Virus record (IMG/VR): IMGVR_UViG_3300030330_005822
Span: 1 to 47,369 of that record
Length of the DNA stretch: 47,369 nucleotides
Direction: 5' to 3' (one strand)
Source: a virus
Taxonomy: Duplodnaviria; Caudoviricetes
Shown one piece after another: positions 2,439 to 13,304 of the stretch. A program made the translations under genes and the position numbers. The notes under the pieces were generated by a model. That model did no database searches and was not told the DNA's origin. It saw nothing but the letters and a program-made list of their open reading frames with translations. Position 1 is the stretch's first letter, and the number at the start of each line of letters is the position of its first letter.

Positions 2439-3026
2439 ATGACTATGCGTATATGTGTAGAGGGTATTATGGGTGCGGGTAAAAGTAGTTTAGTTAATGG
2501 TCTTCGATGCGCCGAAAATTTCAATATTTTTGACGAGGCCGTTATGTTTGATGGTGAAGTGGATAATGGGTTCTTTACTCAGATAAAGTTTTTAAAGTCT
2601 AGACATGATCAATGGAAGTCCTATGCGCCGGATTTTTTCAATGTGTATGACCGATCTGTTTGGTCAGATAGTGTCTTTGCCCGGATTGGTTTATCCTATG
2701 GGGATATCTCTTGTTCTGAGTTTGATCTTTACTTAGCAGCACGCCGAATCTTTCTTGAATCTTCTCCTTTGCCTGATGTGATCTTCTTTCTTGATATCGA
2801 AGCTGAACAAGCTATGAATCGAGTTAAAGCCCGTGGGAATATTGATCAAGATGTTAACTATGGTTTCCTGTTGCGCCAAAAAGTAGCCTATGAACTTTTT
2901 CTTGAAGAGATGGAGGCTAAGGGAGTTGAAGTTGTCTGCATTGATGGCTGCGATTCAAAAGAAAGCATCCTTGAATGCGTAATTACTATGACTAAGGACT
3001 TTTCAACAACTTATGGAGAAAAATAA
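2439..3026 (+). CDS. Deoxynucleoside / dNMP kinase
   Basis: P-loop EGIMGAGKSS, DRSVWSD motif, lid RVKARG. Confidence 0.85.
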   Translation: MTMRICVEGIMGAGKSSLVNGLRCAENFNIFDEAVMFDGEVDNGFFTQIKFLKSRHDQWKSYAPDFFNVYDRSVWSDSVFARIGLSYGDISCSEFDLYLAARRIFLESSPLPDVIFFLDIEAEQAMNRVKARGNIDQDVNYGFLLRQKVAYELFLEEMEAKGVEVVCIDGCDSKESILECVITMTKDFSTTYGEK

Positions 3027-3027
3027 T

Positions 3028-3264
3028 ATGGCAAATTGGGCAACCCCTACAGTATGTGATTCTTACCAAAGAGAAAGATCTTTGGATAAGGCAATCGAGA
3101 GGGCTAATGGTGTGAGAAAAGGACGCAAGGCTCCAGGTACACTAACTGAGCAAGTATGCTTTCCATGGACACAACAAGTTTACTCGTTAGTTTCTGCCTA
3201 CAATAAAGAAAACAGCAAAGAAGATATTTACGAATATGTGAAAAGGAGACTAAATGTTAATTAA
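3028..3264 (+). CDS. Small protein made of one WxTP...L.EQV module (C5-MTase variable-region-like)
   Basis: MANWATPTVCD...GTLTEQVC resembles the WGTP/WATP units of the 4895-6181 ORF; GGAG RBS before ATG 3028. Confidence 0.65.
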   Translation: MANWATPTVCDSYQRERSLDKAIERANGVRKGRKAPGTLTEQVCFPWTQQVYSLVSAYNKENSKEDIYEYVKRRLNVN

Positions 3265-4396
3265 TGGTGACTGCTTAGAAGAACTAAAGAAACTTGAGGC
3301 CAACTCAGTACACTCAGTAGTATCTGATCCACCTTACGGACTATCGATAATAAAGTCTTTTCAACAAACCATCCTTACCTGGTTGACTGAAGATGATTCG
3401 TTTATTCCAAAAGGAAAAGGATTTATGGATAAATCATGGGATTCCTTCGTGCCTCCACCTGCCGTATGGAAAGAAGTATATCGAGTCCTTAAACCAGGAG
3501 GACACGCTTTGATTTTCTCAGGTTCAAGAACACAAGACATAATGGGTATCAGCTTAAGACTTGCCGGATTTGAAGTAAGAGATGTTATTCAATGGATATA
3601 TTCAAGCGGTTTTCCAAAATCCCATAACTTAGGCATTGCTGTGGACAAGGTATTGGGAAACGAAAGAACTAATCTAGGGCGCAATCCAAACAGCCGAGAA
3701 AACATTAAGCAAGAGGATTCACTGTACAGACTTGGTACAGCAGGAAAGACAGGTTTTATCACAAAAGGAAGCTCAGATTGGGAGGGGTGGGGTACTGCAC
3801 TTAAACCTGCGTACGAACCTGTGCTTTTAGTTCGGAAACCAATCGAGAGTTCAACTGTAGCTAAGAACTGTATTGAACATGGCGCAGGAGGTCTTAACAT
3901 TGACGCTACTAGGATTGAGTATGATCCGGATGAGAAACTAAGTTGGGGTGTTCAAAGACAGCAACAAAAAGGAGACAATGGGTGGAGTGGTCATGTCGCT
4001 AAGGTAGGCACTGAAATAGAAAGATATAAAGCTAATGGTCGGTTTCCATCGAACGTCATGTTAACCGGAGTTGATGAGGAGTGGAGTAGATACTTTTACT
4101 GTAAAAAAGCAAGTAAGAAAGAAAAGGGTGAAGGCAACATTCATCCTACAGTCAAACCCATTGACCTGATGAAATATCTTTGCAGACTAATTACTCCAAA
4201 AGGAGGCACAATTCTTGACCCATTCATGGGCAGTGGAACCACCGGAATAGCTGCTAACTTAGAAGGTTTCGAGTTCATTGGAATAGAACGTGAAGAGCAG
4301 TATTTCCATATTGCTAAAACAAGGATATCAGAGTATAGTTCAACTGAAGATGAACTCATTGATGGTGAGTACATTCAACTAGACTTATTCGGATGA
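3254..4396 (+). CDS. DNA N6-adenine/N4-cytosine methyltransferase (beta class)
   Basis: Catalytic DPPY near the N-terminus; HPTVKP and SAM-binding DPFMGSGTTG near the C-terminus. Confidence 0.93.
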   Translation: MLINGDCLEELKKLEANSVHSVVSDPPYGLSIIKSFQQTILTWLTEDDSFIPKGKGFMDKSWDSFVPPPAVWKEVYRVLKPGGHALIFSGSRTQDIMGISLRLAGFEVRDVIQWIYSSGFPKSHNLGIAVDKVLGNERTNLGRNPNSRENIKQEDSLYRLGTAGKTGFITKGSSDWEGWGTALKPAYEPVLLVRKPIESSTVAKNCIEHGAGGLNIDATRIEYDPDEKLSWGVQRQQQKGDNGWSGHVAKVGTEIERYKANGRFPSNVMLTGVDEEWSRYFYCKKASKKEKGEGNIHPTVKPIDLMKYLCRLITPKGGTILDPFMGSGTTGIAANLEGFEFIGIEREEQYFHIAKTRISEYSSTEDELIDGEYIQLDLFG

Positions 4397-4400
4397 CATA

Positions 4401-4880
4401 ATGAAAGACAAAATTGAAGCCCTATATCCAAAGATGAAGTACCAGGTCATGGCAATTTTCACTCCCTACTATGATCGATTTACTTCTGAAGAATTTACAC
4501 AAGATGTGTTTGTATTAGCTTTATCAAATGTTCATAAATTTAATGGCCAATGCAAACTGAATAATTGGATATACAAAATAGCCAAAAACCTATGCAATGA
4601 AAAACTAAGAAGAGACGTTTATAGAGACAAGCAAATCAGCCGCTTTTTTGAATTAGAGTTGGTTGATTACTCAACACCAGAAAAAAAACTTATTGACAAG
4701 ACAGAACTAAACAATGTTATAGATAATTTTAATAAACTTAATGATTTTGATAAAGATGTAATTATTAATGCTGTAAAAGGCATTAAGGCTGAAAAGGCAT
4801 CAAAAGAAATCGGAGTTTCCGAATCGGCGTACAAAGTGCGCTTATATAGAGCAAGAAAACGCTTAAGACAAACTACATGA
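4401..4880 (+). CDS. ECF-type RNA polymerase sigma factor
   Basis: Region 2 QDVFVLA...WIYKIAKNLC; region 4 ASKEIGVSESAYKVRLYRARKRLR. Confidence 0.88.
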   Translation: MKDKIEALYPKMKYQVMAIFTPYYDRFTSEEFTQDVFVLALSNVHKFNGQCKLNNWIYKIAKNLCNEKLRRDVYRDKQISRFFELELVDYSTPEKKLIDKTELNNVIDNFNKLNDFDKDVIINAVKGIKAEKASKEIGVSESAYKVRLYRARKRLRQTT

Positions 4881-4890
4881 AAGGAATACA

Positions 4891-6027
4891 ATGAATGTGG
4901 ATATTACCAAAAAACCTTCCGAACTCACCCATATCTCCCTCTGTTCCGGATACGGAGGAATTGACCTCGGATTTAAACGAGCTGGCTTGCCTATCCGAAC
5001 AGTCACTTATGTGGAGATCGAAACCTTCGTCTGCCAAAACTTGGTTGCGAAGATGGAAAAAGGGTGGATTGATGTCGCTCCTATCTGGACGAATCTTAAA
5101 ACCTTCAATTGGGGACTCTTTAATGGAAAAGTGGATATCCTCAGTGGAGGCTTCCCTTGTCAGCCATTTAGTCAAGCAGGAAGAAGGGATGGAAGTGAAG
5201 ACCCAAGACACCTGTGGCCGTACATCGTTGAAGGAATCAAACAGTTGGGAAGACCTCCCGTTGTTTTCTTTGAAAACGTTGAAGGAATCATCAGCTCAAA
5301 GCTCAAAGGAGACACATGGCTTGACCCAGAAGGAACAAGTGTTCTGCACCATGTCCTCAAAGAGTTGGAAAGATTGGGTTACGAAGCAACGGCAGGCGTA
5401 TTCTCAGCGAGTGAAGTCGGTGCGCCCCATCAACGAAAACGAGTCTTTATACTTGGTGTCAATTCAAGACTCAACAAGCAAGGAAGAGACTTTATTACTT
5501 CAAAACTCTCTAGAGGATTCAGACCTATCTTGGGGGACTCCGAGATCAACGATGAGCACCTACGGCGAGACAGAGGTGTTGACGAAGGAGGGGAAGTTCA
5601 AGAAGGAGTGGCAATTCAGACTAGAGAACCAAGTGTGCGAAATGAAAGATGGATTGCTTACCCCGCAGCAAGAGGAGTTGGTCAATACTCGTGGGAACCT
5701 CCAAGAACAGTCATGGGCCACACCGGCAAGTCGGGATTGGAAGGGGAAGTACCCCAAACACTCTCAAGAAAAGAAACTCCGAAGCTTCCTGCCGGATCAG
5801 GCTCACATCGGTTCGTATGTGGGGAGACTGAATCCTCGTTGGGTAGAGACCTTGATGGGTGTACCAGTGGGGTGGACATCTCCGAATTGTACACACGTAC
5901 TGACAATAGAACAGATGAACTTAGAATGCTTGGAAACGGAGTTGTACCTGCAACATGCACAAGAGCAATCAGAGTCTTGTGGAGCCAATTGGGGCACTCC
6001 TACAACGAGCCAACTTCAGTTAAATGA
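4891..6027 (+). CDS. dcm: C5-cytosine DNA methyltransferase, catalytic (alpha) chain lacking motif IX
   Basis: Motif I LCSGYGG, IV GGFPCQPFS, VI FFENVEG, VIII PHQRKRVFILG, X LRMLGNGVVP; no motif IX in this frame. Confidence 0.92.
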   Translation: MNVDITKKPSELTHISLCSGYGGIDLGFKRAGLPIRTVTYVEIETFVCQNLVAKMEKGWIDVAPIWTNLKTFNWGLFNGKVDILSGGFPCQPFSQAGRRDGSEDPRHLWPYIVEGIKQLGRPPVVFFENVEGIISSKLKGDTWLDPEGTSVLHHVLKELERLGYEATAGVFSASEVGAPHQRKRVFILGVNSRLNKQGRDFITSKLSRGFRPILGDSEINDEHLRRDRGVDEGGEVQEGVAIQTREPSVRNERWIAYPAARGVGQYSWEPPRTVMGHTGKSGLEGEVPQTLSRKETPKLPAGSGSHRFVCGETESSLGRDLDGCTSGVDISELYTRTDNRTDELRMLGNGVVPATCTRAIRVLWSQLGHSYNEPTSVK

Positions 6028-6181
6028 ATCTTTGGGTGCGTACTTGCGAAGATCTAAAAAGAGAATTGATACCGGCAAATCTGTTTTTCCTACTCAGTTG
6101 ACTTTTGAAGTTGAGGCTGAGGAATCCGGAGTAGATATTAAGAAAGAACTAGAAGAACACAAGAAAGTAGTGAACAAATAA
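4895..6181 (+). CDS. Overlapping +1-frame C5-MTase beta chain carrying motif IX and three WxTP modules
   Basis: 428 codons open across the whole MTase gene; RLNPRWVETLMGVPVGWT is motif-IX-like; WGTP (5531), WATP (5714), WGTP (5990). Confidence 0.8.
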   Translation: MWILPKNLPNSPISPSVPDTEELTSDLNELACLSEQSLMWRSKPSSAKTWLRRWKKGGLMSLLSGRILKPSIGDSLMEKWISSVEASLVSHLVKQEEGMEVKTQDTCGRTSLKESNSWEDLPLFSLKTLKESSAQSSKETHGLTQKEQVFCTMSSKSWKDWVTKQRQAYSQRVKSVRPINENESLYLVSIQDSTSKEETLLLQNSLEDSDLSWGTPRSTMSTYGETEVLTKEGKFKKEWQFRLENQVCEMKDGLLTPQQEELVNTRGNLQEQSWATPASRDWKGKYPKHSQEKKLRSFLPDQAHIGSYVGRLNPRWVETLMGVPVGWTSPNCTHVLTIEQMNLECLETELYLQHAQEQSESCGANWGTPTTSQLQLNESLGAYLRRSKKRIDTGKSVFPTQLTFEVEAEESGVDIKKELEEHKKVVNK

Positions 6182-10000: not shown

Positions 10001-11926
10001 TCACAACTCGCAAGCTCCACCCGTACAAGCAATTTCAAAACTACCTTCACCCATATCGTATTCTTCAAAATCACTGAGCTTAGTGTAATCAATATTTGGA
10101 AAAGTTTTGATTTCCTCTTCATATTGTTCTTGTGTGATTTCCTCATATGGAGCCAACTCATACTTACCTCCATCGTATGGAAGGAAAGATAAGCCAATGA
10201 TGTCATCAAAATTATCCCATACCCATTGGCCTACTTTATCCCAATCATCATTCTTGACATAGATTGTAGCAGACTGATTATGGCCTCGTTTCTTACACCA
10301 GGTATTCATAATTTTTAAGTATCTTTCCATCTGATCGAAAGATGTCTCGTCATCTCTAGTCATGGATCCATCGGGCGATTTTACCGGGAATCTAGCGACC
10401 CAAGTCTTTACTTGATCTTCAGGCAAGTCTTGCTGTCCAACTTCTTTGAACATAGGCACACCTTGACTTTTCAACAAGTCAGATAAAGGATCGTCTGCAC
10501 TTACACGTACGTGTCTAAAGTAATATTTGCTGTATCTAGGATGGAAACCACTTGCACAATCTAACATTTGAGACGTATTACCGCTCGGTTTCCCGCAGGT
10601 GATCGCTGCAGGCATATTGATACCTAATCTACTTGAGGCAACCCTAGCTGTTCTAACTGCAATCTTATTTAACAAAGTAAGGAACTCTGCATTGCCCATC
10701 AGTAATGGATTATCACATTGACCGGTCAAATCCACACCGATCAATCGATCCTCTTGACACAATTCAGTCCAAGTAGGACGCAGGTATGGGAATTTTGTGA
10801 ATGTGGCCTGTAGGCACCCTAACCAGGTTGCTAGGATAACCTTTTTCTTGATATCCTTTGCTGTATCATCGGATCGAACTACAACAGCCGAAAGATTACA
10901 GAATTGCCCGCCTCCACCTTCACCTGTCCATGGATCCACTGCCTCTCTATATCTCAGTCCGATTTCATGGCAAGGATTAGATCTAACTTCACCTTGCGGT
11001 CTAGGAGCTTTTTTCCACCAATTATCTATTGATAGCCCTCGTTCTCCTGCACCCGACTCTGCAAGTTGTGTCCACTCCCGATCAAACACCTCTTTACTTG
11101 GTTTCTCTGCAAAGTATGCGGAGTTGTTTGCCATGTATCTACGCAATGGGAACGCCGCTTTTTTCCAATCCTTGGCGTGTCTCATTTCTACATCGTTTGG
11201 ATCTGAGAAAGAGATCATTGCAGAGCGTCTCACTCCGCCAACAACTACAACCTCTGCTAGTGAGCAGCAGATATCATGGCACTCAATCGGTTTTAGTTTT
11301 CTGCCTGATGCATTTCGGATTGTCTCACGAATAAAATCAATTGCTGCAATTAAGGGTTCGGGTCCACTAGCTCGTCCTCCTTTAGTTTTGAGGATTGACC
11401 CCCTAGGACGAATCAAAGAGTAATCGATTTGAAATGTGTGTCCTTTAAATGCAGAAGTGACAGCAAAGTATACCGCATCTGCCCATCCATCTGATGAGTC
11501 TTGAACTTGATAAATTGTCAAATCCTCTTCAACAGGAAGGGATACGAAAGGTAAGTTTTTTACAAACTTTTCCTCTACAGAAAACCCAACACCGGTTCCT
11601 TGCATGAGGATATAAATCAACTCTGAGAATGCCTTCAGATTATCAATGGGCATAAAAGAGCAATTATAGATAGCTGTGTTGTCTGTTGATGCAAACTCAC
11701 CCGATGCCCACAATGCTCTCATCGAGGGCATGACCTGTTGATTAAGGATGGCTTCTTTTAAATCAATCTTTAATTCTTCATCAATATCTTTAGATTCAAT
11801 TAAAAACTTAGATACCCGGTCAACGGTCTCACTCCAAGTTTCTCTTCTTTTGCTCTCTGGCAACCAACGTGCATAAGAGCGTAGGTATACTAATTCACCG
11901 AGTTGATTTGGGAAATCACTCATCAT
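10001..11926 (-). CDS. nrdJ: Class II (B12-dependent) ribonucleotide reductase
   Basis: YNCSF, GTGVGF, NPCHEI, KPSGNTS and C-terminal CTGGACEL; no beta-subunit gene nearby. Confidence 0.92.
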   Translation of the reverse strand: MMSDFPNQLGELVYLRSYARWLPESKRRETWSETVDRVSKFLIESKDIDEELKIDLKEAILNQQVMPSMRALWASGEFASTDNTAIYNCSFMPIDNLKAFSELIYILMQGTGVGFSVEEKFVKNLPFVSLPVEEDLTIYQVQDSSDGWADAVYFAVTSAFKGHTFQIDYSLIRPRGSILKTKGGRASGPEPLIAAIDFIRETIRNASGRKLKPIECHDICCSLAEVVVVGGVRRSAMISFSDPNDVEMRHAKDWKKAAFPLRRYMANNSAYFAEKPSKEVFDREWTQLAESGAGERGLSIDNWWKKAPRPQGEVRSNPCHEIGLRYREAVDPWTGEGGGGQFCNLSAVVVRSDDTAKDIKKKVILATWLGCLQATFTKFPYLRPTWTELCQEDRLIGVDLTGQCDNPLLMGNAEFLTLLNKIAVRTARVASSRLGINMPAAITCGKPSGNTSQMLDCASGFHPRYSKYYFRHVRVSADDPLSDLLKSQGVPMFKEVGQQDLPEDQVKTWVARFPVKSPDGSMTRDDETSFDQMERYLKIMNTWCKKRGHNQSATIYVKNDDWDKVGQWVWDNFDDIIGLSFLPYDGGKYELAPYEEITQEQYEEEIKTFPNIDYTKLSDFEEYDMGEGSFEIACTGGACEL

Positions 11927-13304
11927 CTTTCTCCATGGGACTAACGTCAATTATTTTCTCTGATTGTGAGGGTCGGGATCCACCGCCTCCACTTCTTCCA
12001 TAACCACCGAAAAGCCTAGAAATTACACCAGAACCCTTTGCTTTTATCGTTATCTCGTCATCACTTGAGGGTGCAAGAATCTCCTTCGCATCCTTCATCA
12101 CTTGCATTAAAGTCTGAACTTCAGTTGACACCTCAGGATTGATGCCGTTGTTCTGAATCTTTTCTGCGTAAGATGCAAAGAGAACTCGTTCTCCCTGGAT
12201 TTGAATGACCTTGTTTACTAGAGATTGTAGATCCTGTGGTGTATTTACTTTTGGATCTGACGATAAGTTGCATTGGGAATCTGGTTCATAAACCGGACAG
12301 TTCGGACTAAGGAAGCACGAATTACAAGACCTCAATGATGCACCAAAACCATTTCCATTTGCAAGAGCAGTTGTTTGAAAAACTTGATCAAGAGCTTTAG
12401 ATTCAGCTTTAATAATTGATTTATTTTCTGATGGCAATTCCCTTTTAGTCCAATAGCCTCCAACGTACTCTGAGTCCATTGAATATCGTTTCCACTGATG
12501 GCAATTCCAAAGATCAATTTGATGTTGATCATCGTTTAAAAAACCATCTCGATCTACCCCATACTTAAGACACTCGGTAGCAAACTGCTCTCTAACTTCC
12601 TTACCTCTGCCTCGTTTGGATGAGTGGGTAACCATCTTCATGTTTCCTACATAGTGATATGTATTTCCATATCGACCACCGCCTGCCCAGGTTGAGGAGT
12701 CAACAGAAAAGAAGATACCTGATGTAATGTCCTTTTTTGAAGATCGACCCCACCCATGGATCTTTACGCCGGATTCTTTGTACTTCTTAATATTTGAAAA
12801 TACCTCTCCTTGTAGCTCCTCTAGCTCAAGGTCTTTAGAATACCCAACGTATGCATACTTTGCTAAGTATGGTTTGATCTGATCAATAGATGTGATCGTA
12901 GGCATTGCTTTATCCAGTACCCCATATTCCTTCCAAAGATCGTCGTATCCGACATCAACCGGGATTGACGGATATGCAATAACGTCAACAGGTAATTCTG
13001 ATATCCAATCCAAGTATGCCCTTAGTTCTTTTCTTGCACGCTCCATAAAGCCCAATTGCAGCTCTTCAATGGATTTGTTTTTTATTTGCTTTTGTCTTTT
13101 GGCACTTGACTCATCCCAAAGATACTTATATCTACTCCAAAGTTTATTTAGAGAGTAATTAATGATCACAAAATCAAAAGTACCTATTAACTCAGGATTG
13201 CGATGTAGATCACAACCATAATCTAATACTACTGACTTTACTTGAGCTTCTTTGATTACGTCTAAGTGTGCTTTTCTAGTGAATCCACTAAAACACAATT
13301 TCAT
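11916..13304 (-). CDS. TGT/DpdA-like fold protein fused to a Cys-rich C-terminal domain
   Basis: KIHGWG...FFSVDSSTWAGGGRYG resembles the HxxG...DSSxW tail of phage TGT-like proteins; CNSCFLSPNCPVYEPDSQC cluster; no N-terminal DSG motif seen. Confidence 0.65.
   Translation of the reverse strand: MKLCFSGFTRKAHLDVIKEAQVKSVVLDYGCDLHRNPELIGTFDFVIINYSLNKLWSRYKYLWDESSAKRQKQIKNKSIEELQLGFMERARKELRAYLDWISELPVDVIAYPSIPVDVGYDDLWKEYGVLDKAMPTITSIDQIKPYLAKYAYVGYSKDLELEELQGEVFSNIKKYKESGVKIHGWGRSSKKDITSGIFFSVDSSTWAGGGRYGNTYHYVGNMKMVTHSSKRGRGKEVREQFATECLKYGVDRDGFLNDDQHQIDLWNCHQWKRYSMDSEYVGGYWTKRELPSENKSIIKAESKALDQVFQTTALANGNGFGASLRSCNSCFLSPNCPVYEPDSQCNLSSDPKVNTPQDLQSLVNKVIQIQGERVLFASYAEKIQNNGINPEVSTEVQTLMQVMKDAKEILAPSSDDEITIKAKGSGVISRLFGGYGRSGGGGSRPSQSEKIIDVSPMEKDDE

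Follow-up and report, generated by a model that had tools for sequence, protein, structure and literature searches.

In M.EcoHK31I (E. coli, YGGCCR), the beta chain is encoded inside the alpha gene in another frame. Alpha contains motifs I–VIII, motif X, and the TRD (assigned to alpha in PMC3404938), and beta contains motif IX (PMC2836561, PMC3404938). Both chains are needed by the enzyme, which also works when they are supplied from separate plasmids and tolerates N-terminal deletions of beta (PMC2836561). M.AquI is a two-gene C5 methyltransferase in which the second chain comprises part of the variable region and motif IX (PMC3404938). Multispecific C5 methyltransferases of Bacillus phages carry tandem TRDs (PMC8936443). 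The two-frame layout has so far been proven for one E. coli enzyme; in the phage version described here, a long beta chain carrying WxTP units would start together with alpha.

No published account of a phage two-frame family, or of the function of PHROG 363/1008, was found in a search that covered older and subscription literature thinly. A table in PMC6070908 lists two cytosine methyltransferases, and no comment on overlap was seen with it. An out-of-frame HNH in a phage methylase, described in PMC11855218, is a different matter.

Organization of the alpha/beta locus

The window (i.e., the whole stretch of DNA analyzed, 47,369 bases) is a linear virus record, 49% complete, from marine metagenomes. 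Its gene content includes DNA polymerase, primase, helicases, ribonucleotide reductase, and baseplate genes. The locus belongs to a plus-strand gene run in the order deoxynucleoside kinase, 83-aa ORF, N6/N4 methyltransferase, sigma factor, and alpha/beta locus. The features of this region were as follows:

3013–3264, + strand: stand-alone 83-aa ORF with one WATP...LTEQV unit, 1.6 kb upstream of the locus and overlapping both flanking genes
3254–4396, + strand: N6/N4 methyltransferase (PF01555, E 3e-34), a second orphan methyltransferase two genes upstream of alpha/beta
4401–4880, + strand: sigma-70-like factor gene, directly upstream of the alpha/beta locus
4881–4885, + strand: Shine-Dalgarno-like AAGGA, abutting the stop of the sigma-factor gene and the sole such element before three candidate starts
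4891–4899, + strand: overlapping start cluster ATG-A-ATG-TG (alpha ATG 4891, beta ATG 4895, alpha GTG 4897)
4891–6027, + strand: alpha ORF, 378 aa, C5-methyltransferase catalytic chain with motifs I–VIII plus X but no IX
4895–6181, + strand: beta ORF, 428 aa, +1 frame, with a conserved N-terminal half, three WxTP units, and motif IX
5149–5172, + strand: alpha motif IV GFPCQPFS with the catalytic Pro-Cys; P89, C90, and Q91 invariant in 28 sequences
5272, + strand: alpha ENVEG, a C5-methyltransferase motif
5428, + strand: alpha HQRKRVFI, a C5-methyltransferase motif
5531–5641, + strand: beta unit 1, WGTP...LENQV
5659–5706, + strand: conserved alpha-frame element PAxxGxxQYxWEPPR, between beta units 1 and 2
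5714–5824, + strand: beta unit 2, WATP...LPDQA, abutting motif IX
5825–5875, + strand: beta motif IX RLNPRWVETLMGVPVGW, matching phrog_1008 and positioned ahead of motif X
5929–5949, + strand: alpha motif X LGNGVVP, in the C-terminal part of alpha
5990–6121, + strand: beta unit 3, WGTP...LTFEV, past motif IX and extending across the alpha stop

The motif labels I–X given to segments of alpha and beta are presumed assignments.

Elsewhere in the window, an adenylate/guanylate cyclase-like ORF was seen at 769–1611 (+; weak PF00211 match, E 0.085) and a queuine tRNA-ribosyltransferase-like gene at 11916–13304 (−; phrog_887, E 9e-28). Genes of the latter kind are possible parts of deazaguanine DNA modification. 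CGCG was absent from the window (1–47369; 0 sites vs. about 25 expected), which suggests avoidance of a host CGCG restriction site. The CpG ratio of the window was 0.69 and GGCC occurred at 0.65 of expectation, with no clear rise in deamination products.

Both frames stay open for more than 1.1 kb, as the original prediction had stated. The overlap is 1133 nt, and beta ends 154 nt past the alpha stop. Two ATGs lying 5 and 9 nt past AAGGA had also been predicted, and both are present (4891 and 4895); GTG 4897, in the alpha frame, was added as a third candidate, and it is this codon rather than ATG 4891 that is conserved in the family. Duplex energy of AAGGA was −5.6 kcal/mol for each of the three candidates. 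In the window, alpha initiation may occur at ATG 4891 or at GTG 4897. ATGTG (the beta ATG with an alpha GTG at +2) was present in 24 of 28 distinct loci and also in Synechococcus phage Ssp-JY39. An alpha ATG within 25 nt was absent from 14 of the 28 distinct loci, and in 12 of the 28 GTG at +2 was the sole alpha start ahead of motif I. The beta start codon was invariant (M1, 27/27 sequences), and the Shine-Dalgarno element was weak or missing in six loci (L003, L026, and L032–L035). The claim that both chains share one ribosome-binding site stood insofar as a single Shine-Dalgarno-like element precedes all starts; co-initiation of alpha and beta from this putative site is a prediction from sequence.

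Alpha matched PF00145 (E 9e-38, residues 13–205), TIGR00675 (above cut-off), and phrog_363 (E 7e-52). Motif positions and the PF00145 match bore out the earlier reading of this frame as carrying motifs I–VIII and X without IX, and the catalytic PC, ENV, and RxR that mark C5 methyltransferases (PF00145) were found within motifs I–VIII. The predicted structure of alpha had the C5-methyltransferase large-domain fold when compared with M.HhaI (2uyc; Z 18.5, rmsd 3.7, 214 aligned) and matched M.HaeIII in Foldseek (E 4e-12). The model was confident over residues 11–209 and 351–370; residues 210–258 and 273–347 were under pLDDT 50. According to this model, alpha is a C5-methyltransferase large domain with an unfolded variable region.

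Beta alone gave a low-confidence model (mean pLDDT 46.6) that was better at helix 155–175 and at the motif IX helix. The predicted motif IX and three WxTP units, one of them past IX, were located in the +1 frame (units starting at 5531, 5714, and 5990). Beta had also been described as larger than alpha, which holds in the window (428 vs. 378 aa) but in only 9 of 27 aligned members. A beta profile matched 1392 database proteins at E<=0.001 among 7989 scored; no family was matched by beta in Pfam, NCBIfam, or PDB, and the ESM Atlas gave unnamed viral clusters only. Phrog_1008 aligned with beta residues 310–329 at profile positions 261–280 and with alpha residues 338–365 at positions 292–319. Because this profile spans beta IX and then alpha X, some family members join both pieces in one chain and in the same order. 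The IX element is in frame ahead of motif X in Ramsey gp69, prophi91-4 gp24, and Trax gp78. In the window, motifs IX and X are likewise ordered after the variable region, with X in alpha and IX in beta. A direct comparison of beta IX with canonical motif IX of the comparison C5 methyltransferases gave no significant match.

M.EcoHK31I was compared by way of E. coli locus L048, which matches the published primers. L048 encodes an alpha of 309 aa and a +1 beta of 176 aa starting 310 nt inside alpha, with a restriction nuclease adjoining. L048 and the window are alike in placing beta IX in the +1 frame and motif X back in alpha, and the alpha profile matched the L048 alpha (E 1.7e-28). This common +1 frame and IX/X switch support the original assignment of the locus to the two-frame C5 methyltransferases of the M.EcoHK31I kind. 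The M.EcoHK31I-type beta, however, is internal, ends within alpha, and has a canonical IX and no WxTP units, whereas the window beta starts 2–4 nt from alpha, spans the whole gene, overruns its end, and carries tandem units. The window locus thus departs from the arrangement in which a small nested beta holds only IX and the TRD is assigned to alpha. The M.EcoHK31I-type enzyme is also paired with a restriction nuclease, whereas none was annotated among the neighbour genes of the window locus. The beta profile also hit the E. coli beta (E 1.5e-7), but this was not counted toward a common origin, since the matched stretch is under alpha motifs VI–VIII and may merely shadow the homology of alpha.

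M.AquI carries motif X on its second chain, whereas the window locus has X on alpha and its two genes overlap fully. A second chain holding both IX and X was seen in Roksolana and RedFox, which show an M.AquI-like division, and was absent from the window.

A two-chain C5 methyltransferase, taken as the two-chain core alone, is the highly probable reading of these sequence features. Alternatively, beta might act apart from alpha (as a regulator, a DNA-binding protein, or in counter-defence), or the pair might no longer make plain 5-methylcytosine. The conserved N-terminal half of beta has no counterpart in single-chain enzymes, and a C5-carboxymethyltransferase (8yf3) has the same fold. Such a role is nevertheless improbable given that alpha is without IX and beta has IX at the matching place, that phrog_1008 and single-chain members join the pieces in order, and that M.EcoHK31I provides a precedent.

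Conservation and selection in both frames

The open +1 frame was compared with chance. When alpha was recoded synonymously using window codon usage, a stop-free +1 frame arose in 0 of 20000 trials (mean 19 stops). The exact log10 P of an open +1 frame was −11.3, and −13.9 for the reverse test; over motifs I–VIII alone, P was 10^-6.8. In 15 other long genes of the window the longest open +1 stretch was 38–89 codons, and the third frame of the alpha/beta locus contained 30 stops.

When viral contigs were searched with only alpha as query, 37 loci were recovered, including six near-duplicates. The full two-frame layout (a +1 ORF of full length holding IX, with X in frame 0) was found in 32 of the 37, 31 classified by script and L022 by reading. 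Three loci were cut by contig ends (L012, L018, and L037). L004 contained one stop 170 nt into the first half of beta (L004:880) and L015 one frameshift in the variable region; both broken layouts may be pseudogenes or assembly errors. Stops in the +1 frame across the motif IX/WxTP region of close homologues, named in the original prediction as evidence that would count against it, were not found, the exception being the frameshifted L015. The +1 frame was open over motifs VI–VIII in 37/37 viral loci and in 72/80 genome loci, the latter being the best 80 of 590 confirmed genome matches.

Selection was measured in 27 sequences, namely the window and the 26 loci that remained once six duplicates and five loci with a broken or cut layout had been removed. 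Conservation alternated between the frames. Alpha was ahead in motifs I–VIII, in PAxxGxxQYxWEPPR (5659–5706), and in motif X; beta was ahead in the N-terminal MWILP, across WxTP, and within IX. Within the alpha element, P258 and E269 were invariant and G262, Q265, W268, P271, and R272 were present in 90% or more, with the beta frame variable beneath it. The third bases of alpha G27, R30, P64, and A173, where no +1 stop is possible, showed 0 changes on the tree; these frozen bases fix D/E, E, L, and R, respectively, in beta. Altogether, 5 of 26 such alpha-silent sites had one change or none, whereas 8 comparison sites averaged 6.25 changes (P about 3e-5 by a rough Poisson test). Stops in +1 numbered 0 against 291 expected, in 27 related sequences that were chosen as intact (L004 would add one). 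On this sequence evidence, the first half of beta matters as protein and is under its own selection beneath motifs I–VIII.

Between L001 and the window, the upstream gene showed 67 differences over 477 nt, 43 of them synonymous, and motifs I–VIII showed 7 over 572 nt. Of the 29 changes in units 1 and 2 and IX, 13 left only the beta protein unaltered and 3 only alpha; of the 15 past IX, 6 left only alpha unaltered and 2 only beta. Recent recombination could contribute in part to the low divergence from L001. Selection among homologues, suggested earlier as a check on the locus, was present in each frame, both in the 27 sequences and in the L001 comparison. It lends indirect backing to the idea that, as in M.EcoHK31I, both chains would be produced and required for activity.

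It is scarcely credible that the +1 ORF is an untranslated shadow of alpha codon usage or an assembly artefact: the probability of the open frame is about 1e-11, the frame is open over VI–VIII in all 37 viral relatives, and beta-silent changes dominate in the units and IX. Independent contig pieces matched the window with 0 differences, and the conservation pattern by itself already refutes such a shadow.

The same data bear on double frameshifting, which the original prediction had offered as an alternative. Programmed shifts, from alpha into +1 past motif VIII and then back ahead of motif X, would make one polypeptide, and the overlap would be a by-product. A single chain with its motifs in canonical order would result; single-chain relatives exist (Ramsey gp69), and motif IX is in the 0 frame in 5 of the best 80 genome loci. 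A late shift, however, needs neither selection on beta codons under I–VIII nor an invariant beta ATG, both of which were observed, and four shifts would be needed to include the alpha element that separates units 1 and 2. No X XXY YYZ heptamer was found at either needed place; the three found lie at 4909, 4972, and 5753. Selection in both frames and the alternating conserved elements therefore favour two chains, and frameshifting is disfavoured as highly improbable.

WxTP units as exchangeable cassettes

In total, 86 distinct WxTP units were found in 27 beta chains. Across all six frames of the window, the WxTP motif was seen at 7 places, of which 3 are in beta and 1 is in ORF 3013–3264. Two units precede IX in the window, and 1 to 5 do so in viral relatives with intact beta; units past IX were found in 6/35 sequences. 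Unit number and order vary, and unit classes recur at differing positions in different loci: the class of unit 2 recurs elsewhere in L005 and L007, and that of unit 3 is shared with L007_393, L007_464, and L003_490.

The 81.7-kb contig X4 is close to the window elsewhere and differs in the units. Its replacements break at 5511/5530, 5724/5816, and 5993/6189, all three at a WxTP motif. X4 has an extra 50 codons just before unit 1, the body of unit 2 is swapped from 5724, and unit 3 is swapped past the W codon, as it is in L001. The two replacements inside the overlap changed length by 150 and 18 nt and kept both frames. Since the replacements in a close relative each break at WxTP, the units are exchangeable cassettes. 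The wobble pattern at WxTP was set aside as evidence; it is partly circular, the units having been picked by a beta-frame pattern.

The ORF at 3013–3264 matched units L001_366 (E 4e-8) and L005_263 (E 9e-7) in a blastp comparison with 98 units and is also similar to units within the L010 beta. None of 5 related records contained it as an intact ORF of its own, and it is possibly a donor cassette or a separate unit. At L001:3085–3180, beta ends in a run of about 10 A with a further WATP unit past the stop, possibly a slippage switch or an assembly error.

A profile of unit plus IX had no significant match in PDB, in Pfam, or among 9 comparison methylase chains from outside this family (8 conventional and the E. 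coli alpha), so the labels "IX" and "TRD" rest on position and pattern. Tandem modules between motifs VIII and IX, a trait of multispecific phage C5 methyltransferases, are present in the window. By analogy with the tandem TRDs of the multispecific Bacillus phage enzymes, the units in this place are predicted to serve in target recognition. The SPR, phi3T, rho11, H2, and phiBssHII methyltransferases are single chains with tested TRDs, and those of M.phiBssHII lie at separated places. The window locus resembles these enzymes in layout, as an orphan with tandem units in the variable region, and its units on both sides of IX recall the separated TRDs of M.phiBssHII. The enzyme may be multispecific, as originally suggested, an idea based on position, tandem arrangement, and cassette exchange.

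The units could also be structural or accessory parts of a two-chain enzyme that is monospecific or has a relaxed specificity set by alpha. No sequence link joins the units to known TRDs, the TRD of M.EcoHK31I is placed in alpha, a conserved alpha element lies at 5659–5706, and units past IX and in a stand-alone ORF occupy unusual places for TRDs. This reading is nonetheless rather unlikely: in single-chain relatives the units are in the TRD position, and their varying number and order, the recurrence of classes in distant loci, and exchange at an anchor motif are as expected of specificity cassettes. A two-chain C5 methyltransferase whose WxTP units are specificity modules is, on balance, the modestly favoured account.

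Gene architectures in relatives and the proposed enzyme

The PHROG 363/1008 phage methyltransferases in GenBank belong to the same family as the window locus. Three-frame readings were made of ten annotated phage loci. Five had the window-like layout: Synechococcus phage Ssp-JY39, phage C75C1, Paenibacillus phage Bloom, Salmonella phage SLP-22, and Burkholderia phage BcepC6B. In Roksolana (gp91/90) and RedFox (gp42/43), two chains were found, one with motifs I–VIII and the next with units, IX, and X. Mycobacteriophage Ramsey gp69 and prophi91-4 gp24 are long ORFs with units (between VIII and IX), IX, and X in frame, and each locus has an additional unit-bearing ORF in +1. In Trax, one unit lay in +1, with both IX and X in frame. 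In GenBank, beta only is annotated in JY39 and SLP-22, alpha only in C75C1 and BcepC6B, and both, nested, in Bloom (gp56/57).

Among the best 80 of 590 genome matches, 53 loci showed the window-like IX/X layout: 40 with a +1 ORF open from before motif II (a start there is unproven) and 13 with an ORF opening further in. In five loci the +1 frame held units alone, with both IX and X in frame 0. The other open loci comprised one with IX and X in +1, six unclear, and seven truncated. The +1 frame was closed in the remaining eight, which are ordinary-looking single-chain C5 methyltransferases. In actinobacterial variants (L107, L112, L115, L121, L102, and L041), the +1 ORF contained just the units and both IX and X stayed in alpha; the position of the frame switch can thus be on either side of IX. 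In Paenibacillus phage Bloom the +1 frame opens only near motif IV. As many relatives share this late opening, the N-terminal part of beta is not universally needed.

We infer translation of both chains, their binding and activity, the recognition role of the units, and an anti-restriction purpose. The 1133-nt overlap would yield two proteins from starts a few bases apart behind one ribosome-binding site, and this common start site would keep both chains co-expressed. Alpha and beta would assemble into one DNA cytosine-C5 methyltransferase, with alpha supplying the SAM-binding and catalytic large domain (I–VIII and X) and beta supplying motif IX and the exchangeable, predicted target-recognition units. 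The tandem WxTP...L-x-x-Q-V units would occupy the place of the TRD in single-chain enzymes, and recombination at WxTP would swap units such that targets are changed or added. The enzyme would most likely shield phage DNA from host restriction.

A bolder version, tentative and as yet doubtful, is that of a programmable methyltransferase in a fully dual-coded gene, spread through a large phage and prophage family. It would combine ATGTG starts and a recombining WxTP specificity chain with free cassettes (3013–3264) acting as donors or in trans, and its targets would be reshuffled like HsdS of type I systems.

If the two-chain reading is true, the layout of one E. coli enzyme would be the rule in a very large phage methyltransferase family. 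Annotation would then record a single frame, sometimes the wrong one, and the "low-complexity variable region" would be the shadow of a hidden partner gene. In a dsDNA virus, the locus would represent a conserved same-strand overlap exceeding 1.1 kb. Most annotated overlaps are short, the median being 15.6 nt in the group that dsDNA viruses drive (PMC8903798). It would also offer a natural test of one ribosome-binding site serving two starts 2–4 nt apart. The architectures with IX and X in either frame form a natural series that may reveal how a gene splits by overprinting. Should the units be recognition cassettes, they would be a source of modular 5mC specificities and a route by which phages evade restriction.
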